From a virus (taxonomy: Duplodnaviria; Caudoviricetes): a stretch of DNA of 64,000 nucleotides. The position numbers and the translations under genes were made by a program. Every line of letters begins with the position of its first letter. The stretch's first letter is position 1. The notes under the pieces are model-generated. The model saw only the letters and a list, made by a program, of their open reading frames with translations. It was not told the DNA's origin and did not search any database. Location: the IMG/VR virus record IMGVR_UViG_3300002307_000018, positions 32,001 through 96,000 of that record; one strand, given 5' to 3'. Of the stretch, positions 7,869 through 44,484 are shown in pieces.

Positions 7869-7895
7869 CATACTGATACGCTAAGTATCAGTATG
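7869..7895 (+). promoter_or_regulatory. 11-bp perfect hairpin containing a TAAGTA late-type motif and the start codon
   Basis: catactgatac-gctaa-gtatcagtATG; taagta at 7882-7887 is 5 nt before the ATG at 7893. Confidence 0.6.
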
Positions 7896-8201
7896 AATAT
7901 CGATACCATCAAGAAGACCAGCAGAGCAAAATATCTACACTCTTTGGCCAAACTCTCAGCAAAAGAAAATCATGAGGCTCAGTTATTACTGACTCAATAC
8001 GGTGGCACATTCAAGGTCACTCCAGAACTGATTTCATTTCTTGCAGTCGAACATCTAGGCGTTAAGACAATAATCTTAGATATCTTTGATAATCCCATTC
8101 AAGTTGATCGTGTTTGTATGCTGCATATGTGTATCGATCTGTACAATCTGGTCATGCAGTCATGGCTTGATGCAACTAACGAGATCAACAGTAAACGATG
8201 A
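7893..8201 (+). CDS. Hypothetical protein, 102 aa, first gene of the enzyme cluster
   Basis: ORF track; ATGA-coupled to the next gene. Confidence 0.7.
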   Translation: MNIDTIKKTSRAKYLHSLAKLSAKENHEAQLLLTQYGGTFKVTPELISFLAVEHLGVKTIILDIFDNPIQVDRVCMLHMCIDLYNLVMQSWLDATNEINSKR

Positions 8202-9013
8202 GTAAAGGCGTACTACTATTCGCACGAGATACCGAAACACGCTCGTACACCAATATGGCTGCTTACTGTGCTAAGCGAGTCAACCAATATCTTAAACTTC
8301 CAGTAGCATTGGTAACTGACATTGATGCCGTAGTTGACGAAGCAATTTACGATCATGTTATACGAGTATCATCAGAAACACAGTCACAAAATCGCAAGAT
8401 GTCTGAACTCACGCAAGTCGAACGTTGGCGCAACTTCAATCGCTATCAAGCATACAACTTATCTCCATATACTGAAACAATCTTAATGGATACCGACTAT
8501 ATAGTCAACTCAACAAGACTGTTACATTTGTTTGATATGAATCAACCGTTCATGTGTCACAAACGCAGAATATATTTGGGCAAAGAGAAATTTTCTGAGA
8601 TTGAATCATTTGGGCGTGACAATGATATGTATTGGGCAACTGTAGTATATTTCAAACGATCATCTGAGGCTGAATCTATATTCAATATGATGCAGATGAT
8701 TCAAGAGAACTATGATCATTATTCAAAAATATACAGATTCAGTACCAGTACATTCAGAAATGACTTTGCAATTTCAATTGCCATCAATGCGGTATATGGA
8801 CATATCATGACGCCTGAGGTTGAGATACCATGGCCACTTATGAACGTAGAGTTTACCACTGATGTCAAGAAACTAAATCAAGACTCATATGAATTAAACT
8901 TTGAGCGTGTGATTGATCAAGACAAGAAGAAATTTAAGATCACAACTTACAGACAAGACTTACACATCTTGAACAAAGACGCATTATTCACCATCATTGA
9001 GAACGATACATGA
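8198..9013 (+). CDS. Glycosyltransferase-like protein (GT-A, DxD)
   Basis: AYNLSPYTETILMDTDY, WATVVYF, FRNDFAISIA; GT8/mannosyltransferase-like pattern. Confidence 0.65.
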   Translation: MSKGVLLFARDTETRSYTNMAAYCAKRVNQYLKLPVALVTDIDAVVDEAIYDHVIRVSSETQSQNRKMSELTQVERWRNFNRYQAYNLSPYTETILMDTDYIVNSTRLLHLFDMNQPFMCHKRRIYLGKEKFSEIESFGRDNDMYWATVVYFKRSSEAESIFNMMQMIQENYDHYSKIYRFSTSTFRNDFAISIAINAVYGHIMTPEVEIPWPLMNVEFTTDVKKLNQDSYELNFERVIDQDKKKFKITTYRQDLHILNKDALFTIIENDT

Positions 9014-9783
9014 CCGAAGGATATGTCATTTATGCACTCAACACAGCAGACGTAGACTATGAATGCTGCGCCAGTGTATTGGCCAAATCTCTCAAAGCAG
9101 TAGGCGATACTAGACCCGTTACGATTCTTACTCGCAAAACACTGCTGTGGGATTCAGTCAGCAATCTGACACACGGACCCTATGCCGATGATTGGCAAGT
9201 ATTCTATCGTTCACCCTATGATAGAACGTTCAAGCTTGAAGCTGATATGATTGTCACACGACCTCTAGACAGTTGGTGGACCCTGCTTAAACATCGTGAA
9301 CTACATATCGCACAAGGTTGCAGAGACTATAAGCAGCGTATGGCCACGTCTAGACACTATCGCTATAACAATGATCAGAACAACTTGCCTGATCTGTACA
9401 ACGGTATCACATACTTTACAAAGTCACTGAATGCAGAAACATTCTTTCACACAGTACGAAAGATATTCAAACATTGGACAAAGATCAATGCAAGCTTAGC
9501 ACATCCATCAATGCAACCATACGGAGACACTGATACCGTGTATGCAATTGCCGCTCAAGCACGTGGAATCGAACATTGTACAATGCCTAATGATATGATT
9601 CAGTTTGTACACATGAAGCAAAAGATAAATGGTACATTAGCAGAAGACTGGACTCGTGAATTGGTATATGAATTGGTTGATACTGACTTTAGAATCAATA
9701 CCATTTCGCAATTGTATCCAGTACACTATCATATCAAATCATTGGCAAAAGAACTAGAAGCGTATTATGATAAGCAAGTATAG
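9010..9783 (+). CDS. Glycosyltransferase-like protein (GT-A), related to the previous gene
   Basis: SPYDRTFKLEADM, LYNGITYF, DTDTVYAIAA, FVHMK. Confidence 0.6.
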   Translation: MTEGYVIYALNTADVDYECCASVLAKSLKAVGDTRPVTILTRKTLLWDSVSNLTHGPYADDWQVFYRSPYDRTFKLEADMIVTRPLDSWWTLLKHRELHIAQGCRDYKQRMATSRHYRYNNDQNNLPDLYNGITYFTKSLNAETFFHTVRKIFKHWTKINASLAHPSMQPYGDTDTVYAIAAQARGIEHCTMPNDMIQFVHMKQKINGTLAEDWTRELVYELVDTDFRINTISQLYPVHYHIKSLAKELEAYYDKQV

Positions 9784-10060
9784 ACTGTATTATAACTCAG
9801 ATGGAACGCCCAAGTACTATAGCATGGAAGAGCTAGAGGGTACATTCATATACGTAGATCAGCAAACATTCCAAAACTGCCGTTATGATATTACAGTAAT
9901 CAAGGGTGTGATAAAATCATTGAGCGAGGGCATGATATCACGATATCATAGAACTGATCAAGAAACCTCAACCACAATACGAACCGATCCTACCGATATC
10001 TTACTTGTAGTTGGCCAAACAGATAGCTATATTTTATGGGACTACACAGCTAGCATATAA
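9767..10060 (+). CDS. Hypothetical protein, 97 aa
   Basis: ORF track; overlaps its neighbours in operon fashion. Confidence 0.6.
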   Translation: MISKYRLYYNSDGTPKYYSMEELEGTFIYVDQQTFQNCRYDITVIKGVIKSLSEGMISRYHRTDQETSTTIRTDPTDILLVVGQTDSYILWDYTASI

Positions 10061-10063
10061 ATA
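10056..10063 (+). promoter_or_regulatory. T4-type late promoter TATAAATA
   Basis: Exact consensus, 5 nt before the ATG at 10069; no SD. Confidence 0.7.
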
Positions 10064-10068
10064 TTCAC

Positions 10069-11016
10069 ATGAGTGAATATATAAGCACAGATGAATATGT
10101 AGATGTAGCAGACTTAGATACCATCTATCTCTCCTATGACGAGCCCAAAAAGGAAGAATTCTGGGTCAAAATCAAGAACATGATTCCGTGGGCCAAACGT
10201 GTAGATAACGTTGATGGTTCGGATGCCGCGCACAAGGCAGCGGCAGCAATGAGTGAAACTGAGCGTTTCATACTGATTGACGGTGACAACATGCCCTCAT
10301 CAAAGTTCTTTGACATGACGCTGCACTTACACGAGGGCAATAAGAATGCACAGTTTCGCTGGCGTGCGTACAATCACGTGAACGGTCTGTTCTACGGCAA
10401 CGGTGGCATGAGTTGTTGGACACGCACATTCGTCAACAATATGCGTACACACGAGAACACAGATGGCAGTGACACTACCAATATTGAGTTTTGCTTTGAC
10501 CCACAGTACTGGGCAATGCACGACTGCTATTCAACCACATACATCAATCAATCTGCCAAACAGGCATGGCGTGCAGGCTTTCGTGAGGGTGTCAAGATGT
10601 GCACCAGAAATGGAACACCTCCAGCAACTCCACAAGATTTTATGCGTTGGGTTTGGCCATCTAACTTGACAAACCTATCAATATGGCATACAATAGGAAG
10701 AGATGTTGAGAACGGTTTCTGGGCATTACACGGCGCACGTTGCGGTACACACTACTTGATGCTGAACGATAACTGGGATCATACTGATGTGCGTGACTTC
10801 AAGAAGTTAGACCTACTGTGGGAAGATCATAAGAATGACACTGATGCGTACTCGCAAAAAATCGCCACAGAACTCAATCGACATCTTGGAACAAACATAG
10901 TAGAGTTCGATAGTAAACAAAGCAAATTCTTCAAAGACTATATCAGTAAGAATTGGAAGAACACGGGGCCAATGATACGAGAAACATATGGCCCACCACA
11001 ACAGGTGACTTGGTAA
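10069..11016 (+). CDS. Glycosyltransferase-like protein (GT-A)
   Basis: YLSYDEP...RVDNVDGSDAAHKAAA...FILIDGDN (DxD)...AWRAGFREGVKM; homologous to the C-terminal domain of 26367..28985. Confidence 0.65.
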   Translation: MSEYISTDEYVDVADLDTIYLSYDEPKKEEFWVKIKNMIPWAKRVDNVDGSDAAHKAAAAMSETERFILIDGDNMPSSKFFDMTLHLHEGNKNAQFRWRAYNHVNGLFYGNGGMSCWTRTFVNNMRTHENTDGSDTTNIEFCFDPQYWAMHDCYSTTYINQSAKQAWRAGFREGVKMCTRNGTPPATPQDFMRWVWPSNLTNLSIWHTIGRDVENGFWALHGARCGTHYLMLNDNWDHTDVRDFKKLDLLWEDHKNDTDAYSQKIATELNRHLGTNIVEFDSKQSKFFKDYISKNWKNTGPMIRETYGPPQQVTW

Positions 11017-12302
11017 TGATAGATAAAAATAACAAAAGCTTTTGTGCTGTACCATTTGTAAGCACAATGATTAACTCCGATACAACGGTAAGATACTGCT
11101 GTATGGTCAAGGGCGCACACAATAAGATCAAGAAGCCTGACGGCACATTCTACACTTGCAAAGATGACTTTATCAAAGAAGCTTGGAACTCGCAAGACAT
11201 GAAAGACATCAGATTGGCAATGATCGATGGTAAAAAGATCGAAGGTTGTAGTGTGTGCTATGAGCAAGAAGCGAACGGTCGCACAAGCAACAGACAGCAC
11301 TCAATACAAGAGTGGTCGTGGCGTCTTGGCAATGAAGGTCTAAACAAGTTAGTAGCAGAAGCAGTTGATAACAACGGTCACGTAGAAAGTGAACCAGTAT
11401 ACTTAGACTTACGCTTGGGCAACTTGTGCAATCTTAAATGTCGCATGTGCAACCCGTGGAATTCGAGTCAGATTGTCAAAGAGCACGAAAGCTTAGCACA
11501 AAACCCAGAGTACAGCGAAGTATGGCGCAAGACATTTGGTAAGTTCCCTATCACAGTTATGGATGATCAGCAATGGTTTGATCATGATATCATGTGGGAT
11601 CAAGTGATCTCGCTGATACCCAAACTCAAAAAGGTATACATGACAGGCGGCGAACCCACGCTGATCAAGAACAACTTTAAGTTTATGCAAGCGTGTATTG
11701 ATCAGGGGCGCACTGACATTGTTATGTTCTTTAATACCAACTGTACCAACATCAACAAACAATTCTTGAACTTGATTTCACAATTCAAGCAAGTCAACAT
11801 CAATGCATCAATGGATGGTATTGGTATTATCAATGAATATATTCGTGCACCAAGTGATTGGAAGCTGATATCAGAGAACATTGAAAAGCTGGCACAAATG
11901 CCAAATGTCAATCTTGGTGTGACACCTACCATTCAAGTGTACAACGTGTTTGACATTGTGAACATGTTAGAGTGGGTAGATGCACTGAACACTAAGTACA
12001 ACAAGAAAATCTTTGTTGACTTCTTGGTCAATCATCATCCGCATCATCTAGCTGTTAGAATCTTAGACGATGAGTTGCGTAAGACTGCACTAGACATGAT
12101 CATGAACTATAAAGATGAAAGCAAGCATACTCATGACACTAGAAATTCGCTCAAAGGTATCATTGGTCTGCTACAGCAGTCACGAGTCAATGATTGGGCA
12201 GAGCAACTCAACAGATTCAAAGTGTATACCAATGCACTAGATGCGGAACGTGGCCAGTCTATTGCTGATATTGATTCACGACTGGCGGCACTATGTCACT
12301 AA
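11016..12302 (+). CDS. Radical SAM protein with N-terminal twitch/SPASM-like Cys cluster
   Basis: CAVPF...YCC, CSVCYEQE, LGNLCNLKCRMC, MTGGEP, NTN. Start reassigned to the TAATG overlap at 11016. Confidence 0.9.
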   Translation: MIDKNNKSFCAVPFVSTMINSDTTVRYCCMVKGAHNKIKKPDGTFYTCKDDFIKEAWNSQDMKDIRLAMIDGKKIEGCSVCYEQEANGRTSNRQHSIQEWSWRLGNEGLNKLVAEAVDNNGHVESEPVYLDLRLGNLCNLKCRMCNPWNSSQIVKEHESLAQNPEYSEVWRKTFGKFPITVMDDQQWFDHDIMWDQVISLIPKLKKVYMTGGEPTLIKNNFKFMQACIDQGRTDIVMFFNTNCTNINKQFLNLISQFKQVNINASMDGIGIINEYIRAPSDWKLISENIEKLAQMPNVNLGVTPTIQVYNVFDIVNMLEWVDALNTKYNKKIFVDFLVNHHPHHLAVRILDDELRKTALDMIMNYKDESKHTHDTRNSLKGIIGLLQQSRVNDWAEQLNRFKVYTNALDAERGQSIADIDSRLAALCH

Positions 12303-18484: not shown

Positions 18485-19535
18485 AGATTTTACCACCGCT
18501 AGTCAGTGATATAGTATCAACCTGCTCTAGCACTGCTGGCCTACAATGCTTACCTAGACTGATCAAAAATCGTTTAATGGCATCTTTGTCACAGTCACCC
18601 ACGTACAAACACTTAACACTATATGATCCAAACACTACCACTTGTTCTAAATTAGGTATGGCTTCTAATAGCTGACGCTCAATACTAACAGGATTCAACT
18701 TAGACCCTTTGACATTGATTTGATCACGACTGCGACCTAATATCTTGTAGTAGCCCAGTTCATCTACTTCAGCCAAGTCACCTGTATCATACCAATCATT
18801 GTACGCAACGTTAAAGCCCTTGATATACAAGTGATTGTTTTCAATCTTAGCCTCGATACCATCAGGTAAACCTACTGTGCCCATACGTTGCGGACCCTCT
18901 AGTGGGTTAGTAAAGCAATGACTCATAGCTTCGGTCATACCAAATGCTTCAATAATTGGTATCTTGAACTTAGTCTGTAGTGCAGTATACAAATCATTTG
19001 ACATTGGAGCACTGGCGCCACGTATGAAACGTAGATTATCAAGCTCAAGCTTAGCAACAACGTTTAGTACATCTGGTATAGCAGTGATAAATGTAGGATT
19101 GGTACTGGGAAAGGTATTGATTTCTTTCATTGTAATATACTTGACTTCACAACCAGCTAACTGTGTAGCCCAGTAGAAACCTTGACCATGTGCGTGCCAT
19201 AAGCTCATAATGCTAGTATAACGATCATTGGCAGTTAGCTTGTATGATCGCATAATAGTAGCAGCCATATTGTTTAACTGTGCTTGTGTGAATGAGCAGA
19301 ACTTACTATCGCCTGTAGTACCACTGGTATACCATAGTACACGCTCGTTGGGATAATCACTGCCATCACGATGCTTTTCTTCATCGCTAGTGATAAGCAA
19401 GCTCCAATCAGAATTCTCTAGTAGATAACGATTACGCGCCTCAGGCGCAGAAGGATTGATAATCATGATTGAATAATCATTTAATTGTGGAATATAGTCT
19501 TGCGGATTATTCACGCATAATATGGCTCTTTTCAT
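18456..19535 (-). CDS. AMP-binding (ANL superfamily) acyl-CoA synthetase-like enzyme
   Basis: YTSGTTGDSK, EAFGMTE, YDTGDL, GRSRDQINVKG, GGKISR. Start moved to 19535, 5 nt after TAAATA on the minus strand. Confidence 0.85.
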   Translation of the reverse strand: MKRAILCVNNPQDYIPQLNDYSIMIINPSAPEARNRYLLENSDWSLLITSDEEKHRDGSDYPNERVLWYTSGTTGDSKFCSFTQAQLNNMAATIMRSYKLTANDRYTSIMSLWHAHGQGFYWATQLAGCEVKYITMKEINTFPSTNPTFITAIPDVLNVVAKLELDNLRFIRGASAPMSNDLYTALQTKFKIPIIEAFGMTEAMSHCFTNPLEGPQRMGTVGLPDGIEAKIENNHLYIKGFNVAYNDWYDTGDLAEVDELGYYKILGRSRDQINVKGSKLNPVSIERQLLEAIPNLEQVVVFGSYSVKCLYVGDCDKDAIKRFLISLGKHCRPAVLEQVDTISLTSGGKISRALLDSLY

Positions 19536-19540
19536 AATGT

Positions 19541-19572
19541 TATTTATTGAATCGATCATGACCCTATAAATA
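19541..19572. promoter_or_regulatory. Back-to-back late promoters (minus TAAATA 19541-19546; plus TATAAATA 19565-19572)
   Basis: Each motif is exactly 5 nt from its ATG (19535 minus, 19578 plus). Confidence 0.65.
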
Positions 19573-19577
19573 TTAGT

Positions 19578-20663
19578 ATGTCATTCTGCAAATTTCTCAC
19601 TAATACCTATCACTTTACCTATGACGTGGTCAAACCATGCTGTTGGATTAGTGACACTAGCGTTAGTATACTAAATCATAAGATGATTAAATCAGATTTT
19701 AAATGGTTAAATCAAATTGATACTTGGATTCCTGAATGTAGTTATTGCTTTAAGTTAGAAGCAAATGGGACCGATTCTCCTAGAACAATGTCGCTGCGTG
19801 AGGATATTTTTAATCAGCCACATGAACTAGGTGACAGTATCAAGATTGAGCTACAGTTAGATGAAGACTGTAACGCTGCTTGTATTATGTGTAGCGACTT
19901 TAACAGTACTACTTGGAAGAAGTATAACGAGAACACTGTTAAAATAATACCAATTAAGATTCATCATAAGACTACAGTAGAAGAACGTATTGCTGCGGTA
20001 GAAGCAATCATTGACTTTGATACTGTCAGACAAATACATTTCTTTGGTGGTGAACCATTTAACACTGATACACATCTTAGAATCATAAGACAAATCAAAC
20101 ACCCAGAGCGTACAAACTTAGTGTATGTATCCAATTGCAGTGTGTTCCCGTGTGAAGAAACATTAGAATTATGGTCTCGCTTTAAGAATGTTAAGTTGAC
20201 CGTATCTATAGACGGTATCGGTGAGCATTTCAACTACTTACGCTGGCCATTGCAATGGAGTCAAGTTGAAAAGAACTTGACGAAATATAAAGCATTGCTA
20301 TCAGATAAGTTTGATTTTAACAATAGCTTTACCGGAAGCCCACTTAACTTATACTACATTGATCAGTATACACAATGGTCAACCGAATTCTTCAAAGACA
20401 CTAAGATAACTGGTTCAACATGGTTTTTAAATCCACATCCAGTGATTGGCGTCATGAACTTAGAGTCAGTGCCCTCTGGTCTTGCTCATGCACTATCTGA
20501 CAAGTACGGAACTGACAGTAGAATCTACAAGATAATCAATAAGTTTGATTTAATTAAGTATAAAAAATTCATTGAGTATATTGAATTTCATGATCAGCAT
20601 AGAAAGCTAAACTTCAGAGTAACTTTTCCAGAAGTGGCCCAACACTTTACACACGTGACATGA
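19578..20663 (+). CDS. Radical SAM protein with N-terminal Cys cluster (divergent twitch type)
   Basis: MSFC...KPCCW, CSYCFKLE, DCNAACIMC, FFGGEP, VSN. Confidence 0.85.
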   Translation: MSFCKFLTNTYHFTYDVVKPCCWISDTSVSILNHKMIKSDFKWLNQIDTWIPECSYCFKLEANGTDSPRTMSLREDIFNQPHELGDSIKIELQLDEDCNAACIMCSDFNSTTWKKYNENTVKIIPIKIHHKTTVEERIAAVEAIIDFDTVRQIHFFGGEPFNTDTHLRIIRQIKHPERTNLVYVSNCSVFPCEETLELWSRFKNVKLTVSIDGIGEHFNYLRWPLQWSQVEKNLTKYKALLSDKFDFNNSFTGSPLNLYYIDQYTQWSTEFFKDTKITGSTWFLNPHPVIGVMNLESVPSGLAHALSDKYGTDSRIYKIINKFDLIKYKKFIEYIEFHDQHRKLNFRVTFPEVAQHFTHVT

Positions 20664-21475: not shown

Positions 21476-21478
21476 CAT

Positions 21479-25699: not shown

Positions 25700-26326
25700 T
25701 TACTTGCGCCATATGCTCATGTAACGAGTGTATTCATTGGTATGATATTGCCCACTGAATATTGGCCCACGAACTTGATTCATCATCTCAAAATCTTTAA
25801 GATCAGTACTACAACGAACGTGTTCTAAACACGCAAAGAAGTTATTGCCCTGCACAACGACCAATGATCCTGGTGTAATGTTACGATACCAAGTATCGTA
25901 CTGCTGTTGTGTAACATGTTCGCTTGAAGTGTTGATTACTACATCACTAGACATACCCCAGTCATAGTCGTAGCTACACATATCAGCAGTTACAGCTTTG
26001 AAACGCCAACCATCCATTTCATACTGTTTGTTTATCGTGTCTGCTATATTTTCACACCATGGATCAATGTCGATTGAGCGAATCTTCTTGACACGAATAT
26101 CACTGTCATCTTGAAACATCATTGACGCTAGTACACCAATCCAACCTCCAAAGATGTATATATTCACTGGTCTGTAGTGTAACACTGTTGATAATTGTTT
26201 AACCAGCCAAGCTTTGCTTTCAAGCTGTCCAGACCACATACCATCTAAAGCACGAGTGCGTTCGTTGTCGGGTAAGTTACGTATGGCGTTAAACCAATAT
26301 CTTAGATCATCAATGTGTATTTTCAT
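25700..26326 (-). CDS. Class I SAM-dependent methyltransferase-like protein
   Basis: IYIFGGWIGVLA, IRSIDIDP, VTADM, VINTSSEH. Start moved to MKIHIDD at 26326. Confidence 0.7.
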   Translation of the reverse strand: MKIHIDDLRYWFNAIRNLPDNERTRALDGMWSGQLESKAWLVKQLSTVLHYRPVNIYIFGGWIGVLASMMFQDDSDIRVKKIRSIDIDPWCENIADTINKQYEMDGWRFKAVTADMCSYDYDWGMSSDVVINTSSEHVTQQQYDTWYRNITPGSLVVVQGNNFFACLEHVRCSTDLKDFEMMNQVRGPIFSGQYHTNEYTRYMSIWRK

Positions 26327-26331
26327 AAAAA

Positions 26332-26361
26332 TATTTATACAGATATAGTATATAGTAAATA
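26332..26361. promoter_or_regulatory. Back-to-back late promoters (minus TATAAATA 26332-26339; plus TAAATA 26356-26361)
   Basis: Each motif is 5 nt from its ATG (26326 minus, 26367 plus). Confidence 0.65.
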
Positions 26362-26366
26362 TTACT

Positions 26367-28985
26367 ATGAACACAATTGATGATACCGTTTGGAAAATAT
26401 TAGGTCCCGTAGACTTAGATAAATTTGATTTTAATTGGACACCGCCTGAGAATAGTGAACCCTATATCTATGTATGGGGTAACAAGTGGAACGATTGTAG
26501 TACTGATCCAATGATCGAATATCATCAACCAGAGGGAACAAGCAGAGTGTATATGAATGAACCAGTTGAACTATTGGTAGAAGAAGATCGCTGGAAGATA
26601 CTGATCGTCGGGGCTACAATGGATAGAACATGGCGCCCTAATCCCTATGATCCACCCTATATACATGTATTTGGTAACAAGTGGAACAACGCGACAATCG
26701 AACCTACAATTGAGTACTATGTAGAGGGCGCCACTGAGTGCAAGTACGTTGACAATATTATAGCAGAGTTACCACAGTGTCACGACAACTGGACACGATT
26801 GGGCTTAGAATCGTTTGACTATAGTTGGAGACCTAACCCATATGCTCCTCCGCAAACGTATGTGTGGTGGGAAAATAACGGCCCAATATATACAGTACCA
26901 GATTCAATTGGTACAGTGTACATGGATCGTGATCCGGCAACTATTCTACCAGCCCCACGCTACTATGTAGAAACAACCTTAGAAGACTTGATTGCTCAAC
27001 ACCCAGACGAAGTATTTTGGGCACTTAACAAAGAACTTAAGTATGAACATTTTGACTTTTCATGGAGATCACCAAGAGAAATTCATGATCATCTTAATGC
27101 TTTTGGTAACGAAACTAGCAAAGACACTGGTACATATTATGTTAATGCGCCCTCTTGGTTAGCAGGTCATCGTGATGTTAACTATATCAATGATGTTAGC
27201 TTTAATATTAGCACAGAACTTGATATGTTTTATATCAATCGTGGAGATGACTCACGATTCGCGGCACTTAAACAACGATTCCCGAATCTACAAAAGACAC
27301 GATACTTAAACAGTTGGGTCGATACCATTTTACGTTGCTTGAAAAAGGCCACTACTAAGCATGTTTGGATTCTAAGTAGCGACTGTGACTACACTGACTT
27401 TAAGTTTGACTTTTATCCGTCATCATGGCAATCAAATATGATTCATGTATTTGGTACACAATGGTCGCACTGGGGCAATACCTATATGGTCAATCGTGAC
27501 ACGTTTGAGCAAACTGCTAATGGTATAAAAGTCATTGAACACTGTAACAATATCAATCATGTACGTTCTAAACGTGCTAAATTGGTTGACTGTGCGTATG
27601 ACATACTGTACATAGATCATGGTAGCAAATCAACAGCACTAGAACAATTGCAAAGCTTAGCTACACCGCATAATATTATTACACTTAAGTACAGTGGTAG
27701 TTACTTAGACACGCTACTATCGTATGTTAATTCATTGAGCGAATATGAAATTCCTAACGAATCGTTTGTATGGATATGCAGCGGCTTATGTGATTACAGT
27801 AACTTTGATTTTAGCTATGCGTGTGATCCATTTGAGCGTGAGCAATTGCATGTATTCGCTAGTGAGTATCAACGTGCTAAACAAAAATTTGGAGATACGT
27901 TCTTACTGAACTTAGCTGAGTTCTATCGTGAGCGTTATCATTTAGAATCATTAGATGAGTATTCTAAAAGTGTGTCGTATATTGAACATGTTACAGTACC
28001 TAGATGGGACCATCCAGTGATATATCATGATCATGACAGTCAAGCTACGGCTATTTGTGAGAACAAGAATATTGATTATCCATATTATGAATTGATCAAT
28101 CGTAGTGCTGCACCCACTACTAATAGACCATTGGTGCCCAATATGTGGGACTCCTATGAGTCTCCTATTATAGTGCCCTCTACTGGAGCTACTAGAATTT
28201 TGGTGCCTGTAAGTACAACCGAATTCATATTCAATGAAGTGTATGACTATCATAATATTGAATTCGTAGACAATAAAGATGAATCACAGCCGCTTGACAT
28301 TGTATTCTTTTCCAATGGTGAGCCTGCCGCCAATGATAATTATGCACGACTACAGCAGATTATAATCGACAAACAGTTGCCCAACAGATTGGTACGTGTA
28401 GATGGAGTAGTCGGGCGTGTAGCAAGTCAACATGCGGCTGCTCGTTCCAGCAATACTGAGTGGTACTTCTTGGTCAACTGTAAGCTAAGCGTGAACACTG
28501 ACTTTGACTTTAGCTGGCAACCTGATAGACTGCAACAACCTAAACATTATATCTTTGTTGCTACTAACCCAGTGAATCACTTAGAGTACGGTCATCAAGC
28601 TATTGTGGCTAACAACAGAACCTTGACACTGAATACTGAGGTAGACGGTCTAGACTTTACCATGAGTAGCTTACATCAAGTAGTTAATAAGAATTGTGGT
28701 GTTGCAATATACAATACTGATCAATGGACTACATGGCGTACTGCGTTTAGAGAAGTCATCAAGCTTAAATACGCAAGTGATATAACCAATAATCGAGAAA
28801 CAAATCACAGACTAAAAACATGGTTATCAGTTGGTGACGCAGAGTATGGGCAATATAGTACTGGCGGAGCCTACGATGCTATTGAGTACTACGAAAGCGT
28901 AGAGGGCAATCTAGATGATCTAATGAACAGTTACGACTGGGAATGGATTCAAACTTACTATAAAGCCAAGTACGCTAACACGTAA
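26367..28985 (+). CDS. Multi-domain glycosyltransferase-like protein, 872 aa
   Basis: Repeated FDFSW(R)P..PYI(Y/H)VxGNxW units; C-terminal FFSNGEP...RVDGVVG...TWRTAFREVIKL domain homologous to 10069..11016. Confidence 0.6.
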   Translation: MNTIDDTVWKILGPVDLDKFDFNWTPPENSEPYIYVWGNKWNDCSTDPMIEYHQPEGTSRVYMNEPVELLVEEDRWKILIVGATMDRTWRPNPYDPPYIHVFGNKWNNATIEPTIEYYVEGATECKYVDNIIAELPQCHDNWTRLGLESFDYSWRPNPYAPPQTYVWWENNGPIYTVPDSIGTVYMDRDPATILPAPRYYVETTLEDLIAQHPDEVFWALNKELKYEHFDFSWRSPREIHDHLNAFGNETSKDTGTYYVNAPSWLAGHRDVNYINDVSFNISTELDMFYINRGDDSRFAALKQRFPNLQKTRYLNSWVDTILRCLKKATTKHVWILSSDCDYTDFKFDFYPSSWQSNMIHVFGTQWSHWGNTYMVNRDTFEQTANGIKVIEHCNNINHVRSKRAKLVDCAYDILYIDHGSKSTALEQLQSLATPHNIITLKYSGSYLDTLLSYVNSLSEYEIPNESFVWICSGLCDYSNFDFSYACDPFEREQLHVFASEYQRAKQKFGDTFLLNLAEFYRERYHLESLDEYSKSVSYIEHVTVPRWDHPVIYHDHDSQATAICENKNIDYPYYELINRSAAPTTNRPLVPNMWDSYESPIIVPSTGATRILVPVSTTEFIFNEVYDYHNIEFVDNKDESQPLDIVFFSNGEPAANDNYARLQQIIIDKQLPNRLVRVDGVVGRVASQHAAARSSNTEWYFLVNCKLSVNTDFDFSWQPDRLQQPKHYIFVATNPVNHLEYGHQAIVANNRTLTLNTEVDGLDFTMSSLHQVVNKNCGVAIYNTDQWTTWRTAFREVIKLKYASDITNNRETNHRLKTWLSVGDAEYGQYSTGGAYDAIEYYESVEGNLDDLMNSYDWEWIQTYYKAKYANT

Positions 28986-36737: not shown

Positions 36738-36956
36738 ATGAAAAAAATCTTATCAATTGCAGCATTATCAGCAGCAACACTGGGACTCACAGGCTGTGTA
36801 GTCACTCCATCATACGTATCTTCGGCGCCAGTATACTACTCGCCAGCACCCGTGTATGTTGCACCACGCCCAGTATACGTTACTCCAGTTTGCTACACTC
36901 AGCGACAATGGAACTCATATTACAGAATGTATCAAAACGTCAGAGTATGTCGTTAA
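36738..36956 (+). CDS. Small lipoprotein with PAPVY/PRPVY repeats
   Basis: MKKILSIAALSAATLGLTGC lipobox; YYSPAPVYVAPRPVYV. Confidence 0.75.
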   Translation: MKKILSIAALSAATLGLTGCVVTPSYVSSAPVYYSPAPVYVAPRPVYVTPVCYTQRQWNSYYRMYQNVRVCR

Positions 36957-36978
36957 GCATTGCGTAATAAAAACTCTC

Positions 36979-37008
36979 AGAGTGTTGTAATCCCACGGCA
37001 CTCTTTTT
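36979..37008 (+). terminator. Putative Rho-independent terminator
   Basis: agagtg...cactct stem followed by a T run. Confidence 0.5.
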
Positions 37009-37018
37009 ACATCAACTA

Positions 37019-37047
37019 TTGACATTAAATACATTTTTTGCTATACT
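37019..37047 (+). promoter_or_regulatory. Sigma70-type early promoter TTGACA-17-TATACT
   Basis: ttgaca ttaaatacattttttgc tatact. Confidence 0.8.
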
Positions 37048-37076
37048 ACTGTATTGTCTGAAAATAAGGAAGTAAA

Positions 37077-37244
37077 ATGTTTATCGTGTATCACGTTGAA
37101 AGCTCTAAAGAATTTCGGGGAAACTATCAAACTCTGGCTGGCGCAAAACGCTCAGCTACGGCACTTAATAAGCAATTTGGAATTGGCAAATACGCTGCTA
37201 CTGATCTAGCCAATTACAAAGACAATATCATCAATAACGCTTGA
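37077..37244 (+). CDS. Hypothetical protein, 55 aa (not in ORF track)
   Basis: AAGGA SD; MFIVYHVESSKEFRGNYQTLAGAKRSATALNK...; its TGA stop overlaps the next -35 box. Confidence 0.7.
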   Translation: MFIVYHVESSKEFRGNYQTLAGAKRSATALNKQFGIGKYAATDLANYKDNIINNA

Positions 37245-37269
37245 CAATAAATCAAGCATCAGCTATAAT
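37241..37269 (+). promoter_or_regulatory. Sigma70-type early promoter TTGACA-17-TATAAT
   Basis: ttgaca ataaatcaagcatcagc tataat. Confidence 0.85.
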
Positions 37270-37302
37270 AGAATCTAATCAAACTTACATCAGGAGTATT
37301 AC

Positions 37303-38406
37303 ATGGCAACAGTTAAGACTGACGATTATACCGTCACGGCACCACAGGCACGAAAAGCACTTCTCGCCGCTTTCAAAACAAAACGTCCTGTTTTCTTGTG
37401 GGGCCCGCCAGGAATTGGCAAGTCTGAAGTAGTAGCAGAAATCACTAAAGAACTTGGTGGTCACATGATCGATCTGCGTATGGCGCAAATGGAGCCTACT
37501 GATCTACGTGGAATTCCGTTCTTCAATCGTGACAATGGCAAAATGGATTGGGCACCCCCAATTGATCTGCCTGACGAAGAACTGGCAGCAAAACATCCTA
37601 TTATCGTCTTATTCTTGGACGAAATGAACTCAGCCGCACCCTCTGTGCAAGCCGCTGGTTATCAACTTATTCTCAATGGTCAAGTCGGCAAATATAAACT
37701 GCCTGACAATGTAGTTATCGTGGCTGCGGGTAATCGTGAGTCGGACAAGGGCGTGACTTATCGTATGCCAATGCCGCTTGCTAATCGTTTCTTGCATATT
37801 GAAATGCGCTCTGATTACGCTACATGGTTGCCATGGGCAGTATCGAATGACGTACATAAAGACGTTGTATCATACTTGTCATTCGCTAAAAATGACTTGT
37901 ACAACTTTGATGCAAAATCGTCATCACGTGCGTTTGCTACTCCACGTTCATGGGTGTTTGTGTCACAATTGCTCAAGCAAGAAAATGACATGGATGCAGA
38001 TACAGTATTCACGTTGGTTGCTGGTGCTGTTGGAGAAGGTCTTGCCGCTAAGTTTGCCGGTCATCGCCGTATCGCAGCAAAACTGCCTAACCCTACTGAC
38101 ATTCTGACTGGTAAAGTCACTGAGCTTGATGTCAAAGAAGTGTCGGCAATGTACTCATTGACAGTTTCAATGTGCTATGAAATGAAGGATATCGTAGACA
38201 ACAAGCGTATGAAGCCTAAGGAAATCGATGCAATGTTCGATAACTTCTTGGCGTACGTTATGAAGAATTTTGAAACAGAATTGGGTATTCTTGGAACTAA
38301 GATTGCCATTCAGACCTACAAACTGGATTTTGATGGCACTCGTCTCAAGCATTTCACAGAGTTTCACAAGAAGTTTGGCAAATACATTATTGCCGCAAAC
38401 AAGTAA
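37303..38406 (+). CDS. MoxR-like AAA+ ATPase
   Basis: WGPPGIGKS (Walker A), LFLDEMN (Walker B), AAGNR, LANRF, ATPRSW. Confidence 0.9.
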   Translation: MATVKTDDYTVTAPQARKALLAAFKTKRPVFLWGPPGIGKSEVVAEITKELGGHMIDLRMAQMEPTDLRGIPFFNRDNGKMDWAPPIDLPDEELAAKHPIIVLFLDEMNSAAPSVQAAGYQLILNGQVGKYKLPDNVVIVAAGNRESDKGVTYRMPMPLANRFLHIEMRSDYATWLPWAVSNDVHKDVVSYLSFAKNDLYNFDAKSSSRAFATPRSWVFVSQLLKQENDMDADTVFTLVAGAVGEGLAAKFAGHRRIAAKLPNPTDILTGKVTELDVKEVSAMYSLTVSMCYEMKDIVDNKRMKPKEIDAMFDNFLAYVMKNFETELGILGTKIAIQTYKLDFDGTRLKHFTEFHKKFGKYIIAANK

Positions 38407-38408
38407 AC

Positions 38409-38430
38409 AAAAGGGGCCTAGCCCCTTTTC
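38409..38430 (+). terminator. Rho-independent terminator
   Basis: aaaagggg-cctag-cccctttt. Confidence 0.75.
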
Positions 38431-38431
38431 G

Positions 38432-38460
38432 TTGACAATAAATCAATGCTATGCTATAAT
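38432..38460 (+). promoter_or_regulatory. Sigma70-type early promoter TTGACA-17-TATAAT
   Basis: ttgaca ataaatcaatgctatgc tataat. Confidence 0.85.
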
Positions 38461-38481
38461 GTGTAATTGACTGGAGAAAAT

Positions 38482-39735
38482 ATGAGCGAAGTAATCAACA
38501 AAAGTAAAAGTAAAAACAAGTCGAGCAAATTCGATAAATTGATTGGCGTAACCGATCCCAAAGTCGATGCCAAAGCACGTGATATGCTGATCAATGCTCG
38601 TGTTAGTTTACTGTTCAAGAATTCGTTTTTTGGCAACCTAGCTACTGGTCTTAAAATGGTTAATGCCGATGACTGGTGCGGAACTGCCGCAACTGACGGT
38701 CGTTTCTTCTATTACAATTCCAACTTTATCTGTTTGCTTGAACAAAAAGAAGTAGAATTTCTTTTTGGGCATGAGGTACTGCACGTTGTTTATGATCACA
38801 TGGGTCGGCGAGGTGATCGTGACGCTCGTATGTTCAACGTTGCCAATGACTATGCGGTCAACGCCGATTTGCGCCGTCATAAAATTGGTGAATTCATCAC
38901 TTCAGTTCCCTGCTTGTACGAAGCCAAGTATGATGGAAAACCATCAGAATGGATCTATGATGATCTTATGAAAAACGTTCAAACCATTGATCTGGAAACC
39001 TTGCTTGGTATGCTGATCGATGAACACATGGACGCCGAAGAAGACGATAACGACAAAAATTCCAATCGTCCCAAGAAAATGACTGAGGCAGAGCGTGAGC
39101 AACTGCGTCAAGAAATCAAGCAAAACATTCTGAATGCTGCCAAGGCTTCTCAAGCAGGAGACTTGCCAAAGGGTGTTCAACGCTTGCTTGGTGATATCAC
39201 TGACCCAACAATGCCATGGCGTGAACTGATTCAGACCAGCGTAACATCAGCTATCAAGAATGACTATTCATTCTCAAAGCCAAATCGTCGTGGATGGCAC
39301 ATGGATGCTATTCTTCCGGGTATGACTCCGGGGGAAGAAATCGATATCTGTGTGGCACTGGATATGTCTGGCAGTATTTCTACCAAAGTTGGCAATCAGT
39401 TTGTCACTGAAGTGGGCGCCATGATGGATATGTTTGACGGCTACAAGATTCATATCTTCTGTTTTGATACCAATGCTTATGCACCCGCTGACTTCAACTC
39501 AGATAACATGGACACAATCGATCAGTACGAACCCAAGGGCGGTGGCGGTACAGACTTCCGCGCCATTTTCGATCATCTGAAAGAACGTGGTGAGCCAGTC
39601 AATCGTCTTATTGTGTTTACTGACGGTATGCCATTCGGTTCATGGGGAGATGAGGACTTCTGTGATACTACTTGGATCATTCACGGTAGCAAGGACATTG
39701 TGCCACCGTTCGGGACCCATGCTTACTTCGACTAA
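38482..39735 (+). CDS. HExxH metallopeptidase-like plus vWA-domain protein (MoxR partner)
   Basis: TAATDG, GHEVLH, NVANDYAVN; vWA DMSGS, GGGGTDF, VFTDG; GGAG SD before 38482. Confidence 0.85.
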   Translation: MSEVINKSKSKNKSSKFDKLIGVTDPKVDAKARDMLINARVSLLFKNSFFGNLATGLKMVNADDWCGTAATDGRFFYYNSNFICLLEQKEVEFLFGHEVLHVVYDHMGRRGDRDARMFNVANDYAVNADLRRHKIGEFITSVPCLYEAKYDGKPSEWIYDDLMKNVQTIDLETLLGMLIDEHMDAEEDDNDKNSNRPKKMTEAEREQLRQEIKQNILNAAKASQAGDLPKGVQRLLGDITDPTMPWRELIQTSVTSAIKNDYSFSKPNRRGWHMDAILPGMTPGEEIDICVALDMSGSISTKVGNQFVTEVGAMMDMFDGYKIHIFCFDTNAYAPADFNSDNMDTIDQYEPKGGGGTDFRAIFDHLKERGEPVNRLIVFTDGMPFGSWGDEDFCDTTWIIHGSKDIVPPFGTHAYFD

Positions 39736-40665: not shown

Positions 40666-40677
40666 TAGGATTCAACA

Positions 40678-40977: not shown

Positions 40978-40981
40978 GCTA

Positions 40982-41010
40982 TTGACAACGTGCTAGATTC
41001 GTGAGATAAT
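40982..41010 (+). promoter_or_regulatory. Sigma70-type promoter TTGACA-17-GATAAT
   Basis: ttgaca acgtgctagattcgtga gataat; thyA ATG 6 nt downstream. Confidence 0.7.
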
Positions 41011-41016
41011 AGCACA

Positions 41017-41892
41017 ATGAAAACATATCTAGAACTACTATCTGACATATTATCAAACGGCGAAATTCGAGGCGACAGAACTGGCGTTGGTACCATATCG
41101 GTATTCGGACGCCAGTTACGTTTTGATCTCTCACAGGGATTTCCCGCAGTTACAACAAAGAAACTGGCATGGCGTGCAGTCAAGGGAGAACTGTTATGGT
41201 TCTTAGAAGGGTCGGGCGACGAACGCAGACTGGCAGAAATCACACATGGTATAGCAGAGGGTAAAGTTACCATCTGGACACCCAACGCACTATCATCAGC
41301 TTGGCGATCACACTCAAAGTATGAGGGTGATCTTGGTCGAGTCTATGGAGTACAGTGGCGTGACTGGCGCACACATCAAAAACGTTGGACAAGCAGTAGT
41401 GAGTCCGAAGATGTATCAGTTGATCAGATCGCAGTCTTAATCGATGGCATCAAAAACAATCCCAACAGTCGCAGACACATTCTCACGGCATGGAACGTAG
41501 CAGAGCTTGATCAAATGGCATTGCCACCCTGTCATGTACTGGCTCAGTTTTATGTCAGCAAAGATGGACAACTATCATGCCATATGTATCAACGTAGTGT
41601 TGATGTATTCTTGGGTCTGCCATTCAACATTGCATCGTACGCCTTACTTACGCACATGATAGCGCATGTATGCTCACTCAAGGTGGGTGAACTTGTGATC
41701 TCAACTGGAGATACACACATCTATCTTGATCATCAAGATCAAGTGCGTGAACAACTAGGACGTGACACACTAGCATTACCAGAATTATGGTTGAACCCAG
41801 AAGTACGTGACATTGATAAGTTTACAATGGATGACATTCAGCTTGTAGGCTACACTAGTCATGAATCAATCAAAGCGAACATGGCGGTATAA
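41017..41892 (+). CDS. thyA: Thymidylate synthase
   Basis: DRTGVGT, GELLWFL, LGRVYGVQWR, SRRHI, MALPPCH, YQRSVDVFLGLPFNIASY, GDTHIY. Confidence 0.97.
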   Translation: MKTYLELLSDILSNGEIRGDRTGVGTISVFGRQLRFDLSQGFPAVTTKKLAWRAVKGELLWFLEGSGDERRLAEITHGIAEGKVTIWTPNALSSAWRSHSKYEGDLGRVYGVQWRDWRTHQKRWTSSSESEDVSVDQIAVLIDGIKNNPNSRRHILTAWNVAELDQMALPPCHVLAQFYVSKDGQLSCHMYQRSVDVFLGLPFNIASYALLTHMIAHVCSLKVGELVISTGDTHIYLDHQDQVREQLGRDTLALPELWLNPEVRDIDKFTMDDIQLVGYTSHESIKANMAV

Positions 41893-42236
41893 TGGCTAGA
41901 TTTGACACACGTTATAATGAAACCGAACAAGGGTTTCAAACAAAATATGTAATTGTTGATGATCATATAAAGAAGATCATACCGTTGGCAGTACATTCAT
42001 ATTCACTTACTAATTACTGGGGACTTGTAAATAACAAATTGGGTAATCACAGTGACGATGATTATCTGCTCACCGAATGGATTGAAAGTGAAAAAGGTCA
42101 ATGGGTCATTAAGCGTACGCAGCGTACACCAGAGCTGGTCAAGGGTTATCATTCCACGACCTACGAAACTATGGTTCAAGTTGTAGCATTTCTGTACGAA
42201 GAAGATGCTACCATGTTTCATTTAAAATGGAGTTAA
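41892..42236 (+). CDS. Hypothetical protein, 114 aa
   Basis: ORF track; coupled to thyA; ends EDATMFHLKWS. Confidence 0.65.
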   Translation: MARFDTRYNETEQGFQTKYVIVDDHIKKIIPLAVHSYSLTNYWGLVNNKLGNHSDDDYLLTEWIESEKGQWVIKRTQRTPELVKGYHSTTYETMVQVVAFLYEEDATMFHLKWS

Positions 42237-42237
42237 C

Positions 42238-43212
42238 ATGAGGGTATTAGTAACAGGTGGCTGCGGCTTCATCGGTCATCATGTAGTTGAACGATTACAG
42301 CAAGAGGGTCATCATGTCAGAATCATTGACAGTATGACTGACTATCATGGTATGATTCCCGAGGATGAACTCAAATATCTTGTATTCGAACGCAAGAAAA
42401 AGTTCGAATATGATACTATGATTCATGAAGTCGGTATTGAAAGTCTAAACTGTCGCTTGGCATTTGAGATGTTCATGCCTGAGATGGTGATTCATCTTGC
42501 TTCAATGCCAAGACAAAAGATAGTCAACAGTAATCCCAATCGTGGCGCAGATGTCATGATCGGCGGTCTGTTAACCTTACTTGAAGCATCAGTCAATCAT
42601 TATGTTCGTAAGTTTGTGTATATCAGCAGTAGCATGGTGTACGGTGACTTCACTGACAACGTAAAAGAAGATGCTCAGTGTAACCCACAGGGCGCATATG
42701 CTATCATGAAGTACACAGGAGAACAACTTGTCAAAGATTACGCTCGTCGCACAAATCTTAATTATACTATTATTAGGCCCAGTGCTGTATACGGTCCACT
42801 GGATGTTGAAGATCGTGTGGTTAGCAAGTTCTTGTTGGGTGCTATGCGAGACGAAGTTCTAAAAGTCAACGGACCAGAAGAACGTCTAGACTTCACATAC
42901 GTCGAGGACACAGCAGAGGGCATAGTAGGGGCTGCACTAAGCGAGAACACCGATGACAAGACATACAACATCACTCGCAGTCGGTCAATCACACTGCTTG
43001 AAGCAGCGCAAACTGCTATCGAACTAGCAGGCAAGGGATCGTTCGAGATTCATGATCGTGATCTAGAGTTCCCAAGTCGTGGATCACTGAACATTGACGC
43101 AGCAAGACAAGACTTTGACTATGATCCGTACTGGAACTTCAAAGACGGTCTAGAACAGTATCATGATTGGATATATCATAGCCCGTATTGGCGAAAGAAA
43201 CTATCGATCTAG
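42238..43212 (+). CDS. NAD-dependent nucleotide-sugar epimerase/dehydratase (extended SDR)
   Basis: VTGGCGFIGHH, YISSSMVYG, YAIMK (YxxxK), RPSAVYGP, DFTYVEDTA. Confidence 0.9.
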   Translation: MRVLVTGGCGFIGHHVVERLQQEGHHVRIIDSMTDYHGMIPEDELKYLVFERKKKFEYDTMIHEVGIESLNCRLAFEMFMPEMVIHLASMPRQKIVNSNPNRGADVMIGGLLTLLEASVNHYVRKFVYISSSMVYGDFTDNVKEDAQCNPQGAYAIMKYTGEQLVKDYARRTNLNYTIIRPSAVYGPLDVEDRVVSKFLLGAMRDEVLKVNGPEERLDFTYVEDTAEGIVGAALSENTDDKTYNITRSRSITLLEAAQTAIELAGKGSFEIHDRDLEFPSRGSLNIDAARQDFDYDPYWNFKDGLEQYHDWIYHSPYWRKKLSI

Positions 43213-44012
43213 TTGCACTTTGCACGTTTAGCCCTGGTAAGTGCACCATAATCAACTGACCATTCTTTGCCAACAGGCAATTCAACACCGTTAGCGGGAA
43301 ACGTAAATCGTATTCCGCTAATTTTTTGTACTTGATCAACAGAAACTCGATACTTAGTCAGATCATTACCCAAATTTGGGTATGGAGCAACATGTGGGAA
43401 CATCCACGCAGCATACTGACCGGTCGACTCATCAATTACGATTTTATAAAAGGCATGTGGAACAACAACTCCCTTGCCTATTTTTTTGTCTGTGCTATCA
43501 TACACGGCTCCTACGTAAATCTCAAGTGAATGATTCATTTGAGTACTCCATCCATTCACGCTAGTTTCTAGTAATTTCCAAATTCCACGATTTAAACTAC
43601 CAGCCTGTGGGGCCATGTTTGTCATCAAAAACGATTCTAACTCTACTTGTTGATCCCATGACATATCTCCATCGGGTGCCTGATGTCCCTGATCATACCC
43701 AGTTCCTACGTAATCATTGGGCGTAGCACCATCGGATACGCTTTGATCGGCAGCAAATGCGTTTGAGCGAATTACACATCCTAGCACATTCTGCGGCTGT
43801 AATGAATATAGCACAAATTTAGGAATCTTAGCAGAGGAATCATACCCAACTAAGTAACCCTGTCTACATATTGGAGTAACTCTCGATACTCCCGGCAAAC
43901 CATAGGGCGCATGAACAGAACATTGTTGAAGCGACAGCGGTTCACGTTGCTGCCAAGCAAATGCTGGCAATGATATGAGAATAGATACGAGTATTACGAT
44001 TAGTTTTTTCAT
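43209..44012 (-). CDS. Exported DNA/RNA non-specific endonuclease (NucA/EndoG family)
   Basis: Signal peptide MKKLIVILVSILISLPAFA; YDQGHQAP (DRGH-like), NMAPQ...LNRGIWKLLE, VPHAFYKIV. Confidence 0.88.
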   Translation of the reverse strand: MKKLIVILVSILISLPAFAWQQREPLSLQQCSVHAPYGLPGVSRVTPICRQGYLVGYDSSAKIPKFVLYSLQPQNVLGCVIRSNAFAADQSVSDGATPNDYVGTGYDQGHQAPDGDMSWDQQVELESFLMTNMAPQAGSLNRGIWKLLETSVNGWSTQMNHSLEIYVGAVYDSTDKKIGKGVVVPHAFYKIVIDESTGQYAAWMFPHVAPYPNLGNDLTKYRVSVDQVQKISGIRFTFPANGVELPVGKEWSVDYGALTRAKRAKCN

Positions 44013-44017
44013 ATAGT

Positions 44018-44057
44018 TATTTATTAGAAAATGTAGATTTTTGATAGACGATAAATA
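44018..44057. promoter_or_regulatory. Back-to-back late promoters (minus TAAATA 44018-44023; plus gATAAATA 44050-44057)
   Basis: 5 nt and 7 nt from the ATGs at 44012 (minus) and 44065 (plus). Confidence 0.6.
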
Positions 44058-44064
44058 CTTTATC

Positions 44065-44484
44065 ATGAGATTATTTGAATTTTCCGACAATAAAGAAAAA
44101 CGTGTACGTCAGCTTAAAGAATTTGAGCGTTGGGTGTGTGAAAAACTTGACTGTCAAGTGCCTGATGTTGATTATGGATTTGATTTAGATAAAGTCAAGC
44201 AAATGAGAACGTTTGGCAGCACTTCAAGCGATGGAAACATCTGGGTGTATGTAGGCGATAGAAACATGGCTGACACAATGCGTACTTTAGCACATGAATT
44301 GATTCACCTTAAGCAATTTGGAAAAGGAACTGCTAGCGATGACATGGACGAAGATCAACGTCAACACATAGAAGACGAAGCCAACGCTATAGCAGGCAGA
44401 TTGATGCGAGAATACGGTGGAGAACATGAAGAAATTTACGAGAACAAAAAATCTCAGATGACTAAGTATAGCATAAATCGATAA
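44065..44484 (+). CDS. Zincin-like metallopeptidase (HExxH)
   Basis: MRLFEF start; DTMRTLAHELIH...EDEANAIAG. Confidence 0.75.
   Translation: MRLFEFSDNKEKRVRQLKEFERWVCEKLDCQVPDVDYGFDLDKVKQMRTFGSTSSDGNIWVYVGDRNMADTMRTLAHELIHLKQFGKGTASDDMDEDQRQHIEDEANAIAGRLMREYGGEHEEIYENKKSQMTKYSINR

Follow-up and report, generated by a model that had tools for sequence, protein, structure and literature searches.

How is translation begun on genes whose promoters seem to leave no room for a leader? The question is raised by a 64,000-nucleotide stretch of phage DNA, bases 32,001 to 96,000 of the 264,637-bp IMG/VR viral record IMGVR_UViG_3300002307_000018 (this stretch is referred to here as the window; G+C 41.7%, CheckV completeness 74%). 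The record comes from an uncultivated freshwater giant phage, a relative of T4. In the window, promoter motifs of two kinds, one like the late promoters of T4 and the other a sigma70-type promoter, stand only a few nucleotides (nt) ahead of the ATG start codons of a series of genes. The spacing is real and far from chance. Judged from the spacing of the promoters, the explanation that fits best, and a likely one, is that both promoter classes give leaderless or near-leaderless transcripts.

The original prediction had listed eight genes with TAAATA or TAAGTA exactly 5 nt before the ATG and with no obvious Shine-Dalgarno (SD) sequence. All sixteen of its coordinates are correct and seven of the eight cases are solid, the eighth being an unsupported TAAGTA at 7893 (see below). 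Two further cases in the window, at 44065 and 4213, have a 7-nt spacer; that at 4213 is weak because its open reading frame (ORF) is small. The late-type cases are as follows, with protein lengths in amino acids (aa):

10058..10071 (+), late-type promoter: TAAATA 10058-10063, 5-nt spacer, ATG 10069 of a gene of 315 aa.
19533..19580, divergent late pair with a 42-nt gap: TAAATA 19541-19546 (-), 5 nt to ATG 19535 of an AMP-binding enzyme; TAAATA 19567-19572 (+), 5 nt to ATG 19578 of a radical SAM gene.
26324..26369, divergent late pair with a 40-nt gap: TAAATA 26332-26337 (-), 5 nt to ATG 26326 (208 aa); TAAATA 26356-26361 (+), 5 nt to ATG 26367 (872 aa).
31372..31433, mixed pair with a 56-nt gap: late-type TAAATA 31380-31385 (-), 5 nt to ATG 31374 of a kinase-like gene (N-terminus MKPLEILSE), facing a sigma70-type promoter.
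44010..44067, divergent late pair with a 52-nt gap: TAAATA 44018-44023 (-), 5 nt to ATG 44012 of a non-specific endonuclease with a signal-peptide-like N-terminus; TAAATA 44052-44057 (+), 7 nt to ATG 44065 of an M78-peptidase-like gene (139 aa).
4200..4215 (+), weak late-type case: TAAATA, 7-nt spacer, ATG 4213 of an ORF of 50 aa.

Over the whole record, TAAATA-N5-ATG occurs 17 times, compared to 3.3 +/- 2.0 (maximum 7) in 40 third-order Markov simulations of the record. The original prediction had also proposed a genome-wide histogram of motif-to-ATG distances, and this was made without gene calls by pairing every TAAATA with the next ATG that opens at least 50 codons. The distances peak sharply at 5 nt (15 cases) and are bimodal: 33 genes fall within 4-8 nt, the range 9-15 nt is nearly empty, and a second, broad mode sets in at about 16 nt. 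The 25 late genes with a motif at least 16 nt from the ATG carry an SD, whereas an SD core (GGAG, GAGG, AGGA or AAGG in -20 to -1) is present in none of the 33 close-spaced cases. Counted over ORFs of 100 codons or more, the phased start is ATG in 28 cases, GTG in none and TTG in one, a count tempered by the near-universal use of ATG among the genes of this phage.

The motif itself is the same in both late spacing classes, with the consensus gATAAATAct. TAAATA is preceded by A in 67% of close-spaced and 76% of leadered cases, as against 20% of other TAAATA sites, and that A is in turn preceded by G in 42%, 48% and 19%, respectively. C and then T follow the motif, and no base further upstream is conserved. 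Genes for baseplate wedge, virion structural and fibre proteins and for holin also have the late motif upstream.

The second promoter class was likewise correctly read: the claim that three sigma70 promoters end 6 nt before the ATG is borne out both by a check of the coordinates and by their enrichment. These promoters, which have 11-12 of 12 matches to TTGACA/17-bp spacer/TATAAT, are:

31396..31433 (+), sigma70-type promoter: TTGACA 31396-31401, N17, TACAAT 31419-31424, 6 nt, ATG 31431 (61 aa).
36006..36043 (+), sigma70-type promoter: TTGACA-N17-TATAAT (12/12 matches), 6-nt spacer, ATG 36041 (84 aa).
40982..41019 (+), sigma70-type promoter: TTGACA-N17-(TGa)GATAAT with an extended -10 element, 6-nt spacer, ATG 41017 of the thymidylate synthase gene (thyA).

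They belong to the eight highest-ranking sigma70-like matches in 25500-45400, all of which lie on the + strand between 31396 and 41010. In the whole record, TTGACA-N17-TAnnnT-N6-ATG was found 8 times, compared to 0.15 +/- 0.4 expected from third-order Markov simulations. Nine of 72 sigma70-like promoters lie exactly 6 nt from an ATG; none lies at 2-3, 5 or 7-10 nt, and a single ORF of 41 aa follows at 4 nt. The main distance mode of these promoters is at 28-34 nt, with an AAGG-type SD.

What would these two distances mean for the transcript? The -10 box read by sigma70 occupies -12 to -7, and a 6-nt spacer would therefore place +1 on the A of the ATG. The T4 late TATAAATA occupies -13 to -6 (PMC1524935), and a spacer of 5 nt after a motif with its last base at -6 would place +1 on the same base. 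The spacing thus supports the proposal that transcription begins on the A of AUG in both classes, and the most telling internal evidence for the leaderless reading is that each of the two promoter classes stands at the spacing proper to it.

In the mechanism that we propose, about 42 genes (33 late-type and 9 sigma70-type, of which the window holds 9 and 3) would be promoter-plus-ATG cassettes. Early in infection, the host sigma70 holoenzyme would act on TTGACA-N17-TATAAT and start 7 nt beyond the -10 box; in the late phase, the RNA polymerase of the host, now carrying a phage gp55-type sigma, would read (g)ATAAATA(ct) as a promoter with only a -10 element and start about 6 nt past the motif. 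The mRNA would then begin with the AUG, or with 1-3 extra bases where the spacer is 6-8 nt, and ribosomes would load on the 5'-terminal AUG without an SD. Downstream cistrons, which are also SD-poor, would probably be read by translational coupling.

A sigma factor of this type is encoded in the record. The gp55 homologue (309 aa, record 10770-11699, - strand) adjoins gp47-like and gp46-like genes, as it does in the cultured kin of this phage, and T4 gp55 as query matches record 10874-11155 (E 1.9e-6). The protein matches phrog_12791 (E 9e-79) and phrog_234 (E 1e-22); phrog_234 is the short T4-type family and is matched by residues 172-300 only, so that the N-terminal half is extra. At least 599 IMG/VR stretches conserve that extra half. 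For phages CBB and GAP32, ATAAATA has been predicted as the late motif before structural genes (PMC5259590), and the consensus gATAAATAct matches both this element and the T4 late TATAAATA.

Could misassigned start codons, or chance in an A/T-rich genome, explain the pattern? Four minus-strand genes do have in-frame upstream candidates (19559, 26374, 31413 and 44066/44090), and the lack of support for the TAAGTA case also speaks for such an explanation. Chance is opposed by the Markov simulations described above. As for the start codons, orthologue N-termini confirm the starts at 19535, 31374, 44012 and 41017, and the ATGs at 10069, 19578 and 26367 are the first possible starts of their open frames. 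For the AMP-binding gene (19535, -), 14 related contigs (10 distinct sequences over the 120 nt compared) all begin with MKRAVLCV or a close variant, with synonymous changes; identity is 0.73 in the coding part as against 0.38 upstream. Relatives of the nuclease (44012, -) start at the same MKK, and the thyA N-terminus, MKTYLELL, aligns with residue 1 of ThyA homologues. The upstream alternatives, moreover, lack an SD and would overlap the divergent partner. This explanation is hardly credible.

The TAAGTA case was tried as a variant late motif and rejected, both for want of genome-wide enrichment of TAAGTA-N5-ATG and on account of a hairpin at the site:

7868..7895 (+), TAAGTA case: motif 7882-7887, 5 nt to ATG 7893 of a gene of 102 aa; 12-bp hairpin of -17.4 kcal/mol, in which the motif forms the loop and 3' arm and the stem includes the AUG of 7893.

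This element is probably not of the same kind as the TAAATA promoters, and the hairpin may hide the 7893 start on read-through transcripts from the 6932 unit. No relatives of 8198-9013 were found among viral contigs.

The genes with longer leaders provide the natural comparison. The original prediction assigned GGAG- or AGGA-bearing leaders to 5031, 6932, 29021, 35433 (-) and 58299, and a re-reading of all coordinates agrees, with a TAAATA-type motif 17-31 nt upstream plus GGAG, AGGA or AAGGA in each. Representative comparators of the two classes are:

4995..5033 (+), leadered late comparator: gATAAATAaATAc about 23-27 nt upstream, GGAG before ATG 5031; the same design precedes 6932, 29021, 35433 (-), 35972 (-), 45191 and 58299.
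36299..38484 (+), sigma70-type comparators: promoters at 36299, 37019, 37241 and 38432 for ATGs 36357, 37077, 37303 and 38482, each with a leader of 21-33 nt and an SD.

As a separate observation, the record carries ~30 copies of a very uniform early promoter cassette, in which TTGACA, a 17-nt spacer (mostly with TGC at its end), TATAAT, ~30 nt of leader, AAGGA and the ATG follow one another (for example 36299-36357, 37019-37077 and 37241-37303).

These comparators bear on the proposal that TAAATA-N5 is a translation signal on a leadered mRNA, namely an A/U-rich enhancer that is bound by the ribosome or S1 and takes the place of the SD. The motif is indeed A/U-rich and lies in the SD position. 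However, gATAAATAct is also found 17-40 nt upstream of SD-led virion genes, where it cannot substitute for an SD, and in the second class the element is a complete sigma70 promoter of 29 bp, always 6 nt from the ATG. The divergent pairs, moreover, leave no space for another promoter. In the record there are six late/late pairs, with 26-52 nt between the ATGs (19535/19578, 26326/26367, 44012/44065, 174905/174932, 191082/191130 and 198445/198487, in window coordinates), and one late/sigma70 pair with 56 nt (31374/31431). With only 26-56 nt in these seven pairs, any other promoter would have to sit inside the opposite gene. We regard a translation signal of this type as very unlikely. The leaderless arrangement, by comparison, would permit just such short divergent intergenic regions, each holding two promoters.

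How the arrangement has fared in evolution can be followed in the relatives. Around the AMP-binding gene, TATAAATA-N5-ATG occurs in three unrelated upstream contexts, with N8 in one contig and leaders of 19-30 nt in more distant ones. The kinase-like gene (31374, -) has TAAATA-N7-ATG in two relatives, and one of these two, contig L107, keeps the divergent TTGACA-N17-TATACT-N6-ATG with a different spacer sequence. Among the nuclease relatives, contig L007 keeps TAAATA-N5-ATG, one has the motif with a 21-nt leader containing AAGGA, and the others lack the motif, with the ATG directly after the upstream reading frame. Six relatives of thyA carry, in order, a hairpin with a T-run that resembles a terminator, TGnTAyAAT, 5-6 nt and the ATG. 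(A simple terminator scan gave no enrichment over shuffles, with 12 found compared to 13.2 expected.) For 26367-28985, no relatives were found among viral contigs. A comparison of 80 loci around the long gp55 revealed 25 contigs with a gp25-like baseplate wedge gene behind TAAATA-N4/5-ATG, in otherwise divergent flanks, and one contig with a baseplate wedge gene of 667 aa behind the same element. Because relatives keep the spacing over divergent flanks, switch between forms and include baseplate genes, the abutting arrangement is, on these comparisons, selected, evolutionarily labile and not confined to enzymes.

The same comparisons bear on a more serious alternative, in which the promoters are real and are packed against the ATG to save space, most of the protein comes from read-through transcripts by coupling or reinitiation, and leaderless transcripts are minor or poorly translated. 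The 10069 gene heads an SD-poor operon that extends to about 18484, and across 8000-25699 an SD core precedes only 2 of 18 genes, compared to 129 of 270 (48%) elsewhere (Fisher p 0.0025). SD-independent internal initiation therefore clearly works in this phage. The genes of this block, a radical SAM and tailoring cluster, have many ATGA overlaps and a lower G+C (0.36-0.38); the block is either a translationally coupled one of low expression or DNA from an SD-poor source. In addition, the TAA of the motif at 10058 doubles as the stop codon of the upstream gene, 9767-10060, and orthologues switch freely among coupled, leadered and abutting forms. Against the read-through explanation, the seven divergent pairs have no upstream cistron for coupling, the hairpin in the six thyA relatives lies right before the abutting promoter, and exact spacings of 5 and 6 nt are unnecessary for compaction alone. 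On balance we consider this alternative unlikely, if clearly less so than the two discussed above.

Which genes use the abutting design? Close-spaced late genes are mostly auxiliary: two radical SAM enzymes, the AMP-binding enzyme, the non-specific nuclease, an HNH nuclease, a MazG-like protein, two kinase-like proteins, the M78-like peptidase, a QueC-like protein, superoxide dismutase, a fatty-acid desaturase, an amidoligase, a TctC-like protein, IF-1 and many of no assigned function. The IF-1 homologue (71 aa; Pfam PF01176, 69 bits) is encoded at record 147072-147284 (+), window-scale 115072-115284, behind TAAATA+6+ATG. SD-led late genes include those for baseplate, virion and fibre proteins, for a holin and for an HNH nuclease, and SD-led early genes include a MoxR-type ATPase. 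Two genes of the same HNH/endonuclease families (phrog_681, phrog_559), at 44512-45183 (+) and at window-scale 80819-81481 (+), differ in design: an SD and a TAAATA+24 spacing in one of them, close spacing (TAAATA+8) in the other.

The claim that translation is two-tier, with SD-led structural mRNAs and leaderless enzyme mRNAs, survives as a tendency in this genome. It goes no further because the MoxR-type ATPase, the HNH nuclease and the holin are SD-led and because the baseplate genes of relatives stand behind TAAATA-N4/5-ATG. The two late groups do differ in median G+C (0.398 in close-spaced compared to 0.436 in SD-led genes, p 3e-4), and Lys, Asn or Arg follows the initial Met in 23 of the 33 close-spaced genes, while SD-led genes prefer Ala, Thr or Ser at this position. 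The abutting design would probably provide a weaker translation tier for auxiliary enzymes, next to an SD-led tier for bulk virion proteins.

Capsid-targeting-like N-termini were also seen on close-spaced late genes at window-scale 115902, 150055, 176555 and 31374; these are MRELITLLEA (on the superoxide dismutase), MKIADILTE (kinase-like), MRIKDVLSE and MKPLEILSE. The SD-free tier may thus include packaged proteins of low copy number.

Several points weigh against leaderless transcription as the explanation, or against parts of it. Start choice by T4-type holoenzymes can vary by at least one base, and in 18 of the 33 late cases the spacer is 4 or 6-8 nt, which would give a clipped start or a leader of 1-3 nt unless the start shifts. 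Co-directional cases such as 10069 could also be translated by reinitiation on read-through transcripts, given the overlap of motif and stop codon. The argument for a weaker translation tier is drawn from just the lower G+C and the functions of the genes. Finally, T4 gp45 as query had no match in the 74%-complete record (gp33 was not searched for), which may mean that this phage and T4 differ in their late machinery. CBB has been reported to lack both gp33 and gp45 (PMC5259590).

The leaderless reading led the original prediction to suggest a host rich in leaderless mRNA, such as an alphaproteobacterium. This suggestion finds no support, because the transfer-messenger RNA (tmRNA) scores as the betaproteobacterial type and because the motif is only weakly enriched in Atu_ph07, a cultured relative that infects Agrobacterium (counts below). 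The tmRNA is in two pieces, at window 33878-34198 (+), and scores 108.9 bits with the Rfam model beta_tmRNA (gathering score 84) and 116.9 bits with tmRNA_permuted; ARAGORN made no call on this permuted tmRNA, although the Rfam models score. Its tag, ANDEMFALAA, had no exact match in a collection of genome contigs, and a search with the TctC-like protein found no close bacterial relative. The phage IF-1 homologue shares 50-60% identity with the IF-1 of many phyla and therefore carries no information on the host.

How widely is the arrangement distributed? A megablast search with 10 kb of the DNA found no match in a phage collection. By protein and gene order, the nearest cultured kin are the T4-distant jumbo myoviruses PA5oct, GAP32, CBB, RaK2, 121Q, XacN1 and Atu_ph07, and gp25 together with the gene order (the sigma factor adjoining gp47 and gp46) places PA5oct/GAP32/CBB as the nearest cultured group. 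Counts of TAAATA-N5-ATG, each compared to a reversed-pattern control, are:

G001, uncultured, 524 kb: 45 observed, 12 in the control.
G002, uncultured, 266 kb: 18 observed, 2 in the control.
G003, uncultured, 327 kb: 18 observed, 5 in the control.
XacN1: 11 observed, 1 in the control.
Atu_ph07: 15 observed, 9 in the control.
T4: 10 observed, 5 in the control.
PA5oct: 15 observed, 12 in the control.
GAP32: 5 observed, 8 in the control.
RsoM2USA: 5 observed, 3 in the control.
Vibrio phage 2.275.O: 3 observed, 3 in the control.

The enrichment is clade-specific. In Xanthomonas phage XacN1 (AP018399.1), three of four sites checked are annotated starts (126974, 128288 and 158321, of ORF233, ORF234 and ORF267).

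T4 late transcription shares with this phage the core motif, the absence of a -35 element, an encoded gp55 and the placement of the motif before virion genes (PMC1524935). T4, however, has only 10 copies of TAAATA-N5-ATG against 5 in its control. Here, about half of the gene-preceding motif copies abut the ATG at 4-8 nt, and the sigma factor, at 309 aa, has its extra N-terminal half. CBB, GAP32 and PA5oct have the same ATAAATA motif before structural genes (PMC5259590, PMC7318152). In 40-kb stretches of PA5oct and GAP32, however, about 20-35 nt separate the motif from the start codon, and an SD stands between the two. TAAATA-N5-ATG is not enriched in either genome.

Leaderless mRNAs as such are familiar. 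The lambda PRM-cI transcript and other phage mRNAs of this kind start on the A of the AUG, lack an SD and require the AUG. The present genes resemble these in that the promoter would place +1 on the A of AUG without an SD; those cases, however, involve single genes or hosts rich in leaderless mRNA, whereas here two promoter classes, one of them read by a phage sigma, serve at least one-tenth of the genes, often in back-to-back pairs. Phage transcripts have been remarked to be often leaderless (PMC5312081), and leaderless translation in mycobacteria has been covered elsewhere (PMC4633059). No description of T4-type late promoters giving leaderless mRNAs was found in the open-access literature.

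If the starts map to the ATGs, then T4-type late promoters, the simplest known bacterial promoters, would be promoter-plus-start-codon units, giving genes with no untranslated region and divergent pairs as little as 26 nt apart, and the phage would sort its proteins into strong SD-led and SD-free tiers purely by the placement of promoters. For annotation, software that prefers starts with an SD would lengthen several of these genes to incorrect upstream codons (19559, 26374, 31413, 44090). The enrichment of the motif-N5-ATG arrangement also serves as a sequence-only marker that separates the aquatic clade from PA5oct, GAP32, RsoM2USA, Vibrio 2.275.O, Atu_ph07 and T4, as counted above, and it points to XacN1 as a possible laboratory model. 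One can go further and imagine a whole uncultivated aquatic T4-type jumbo clade with a dedicated SD-free tier, in which promoter-plus-AUG cassettes are read by the long gp55 and are followed by SD-poor coupled operons, perhaps with help from the phage IF-1; this extension is speculative, and we consider it unlikely. If such a tier did exist, the expression of auxiliary genes would be largely independent of the host SD/anti-SD interaction, and these genes could move between phages as minimal cassettes.

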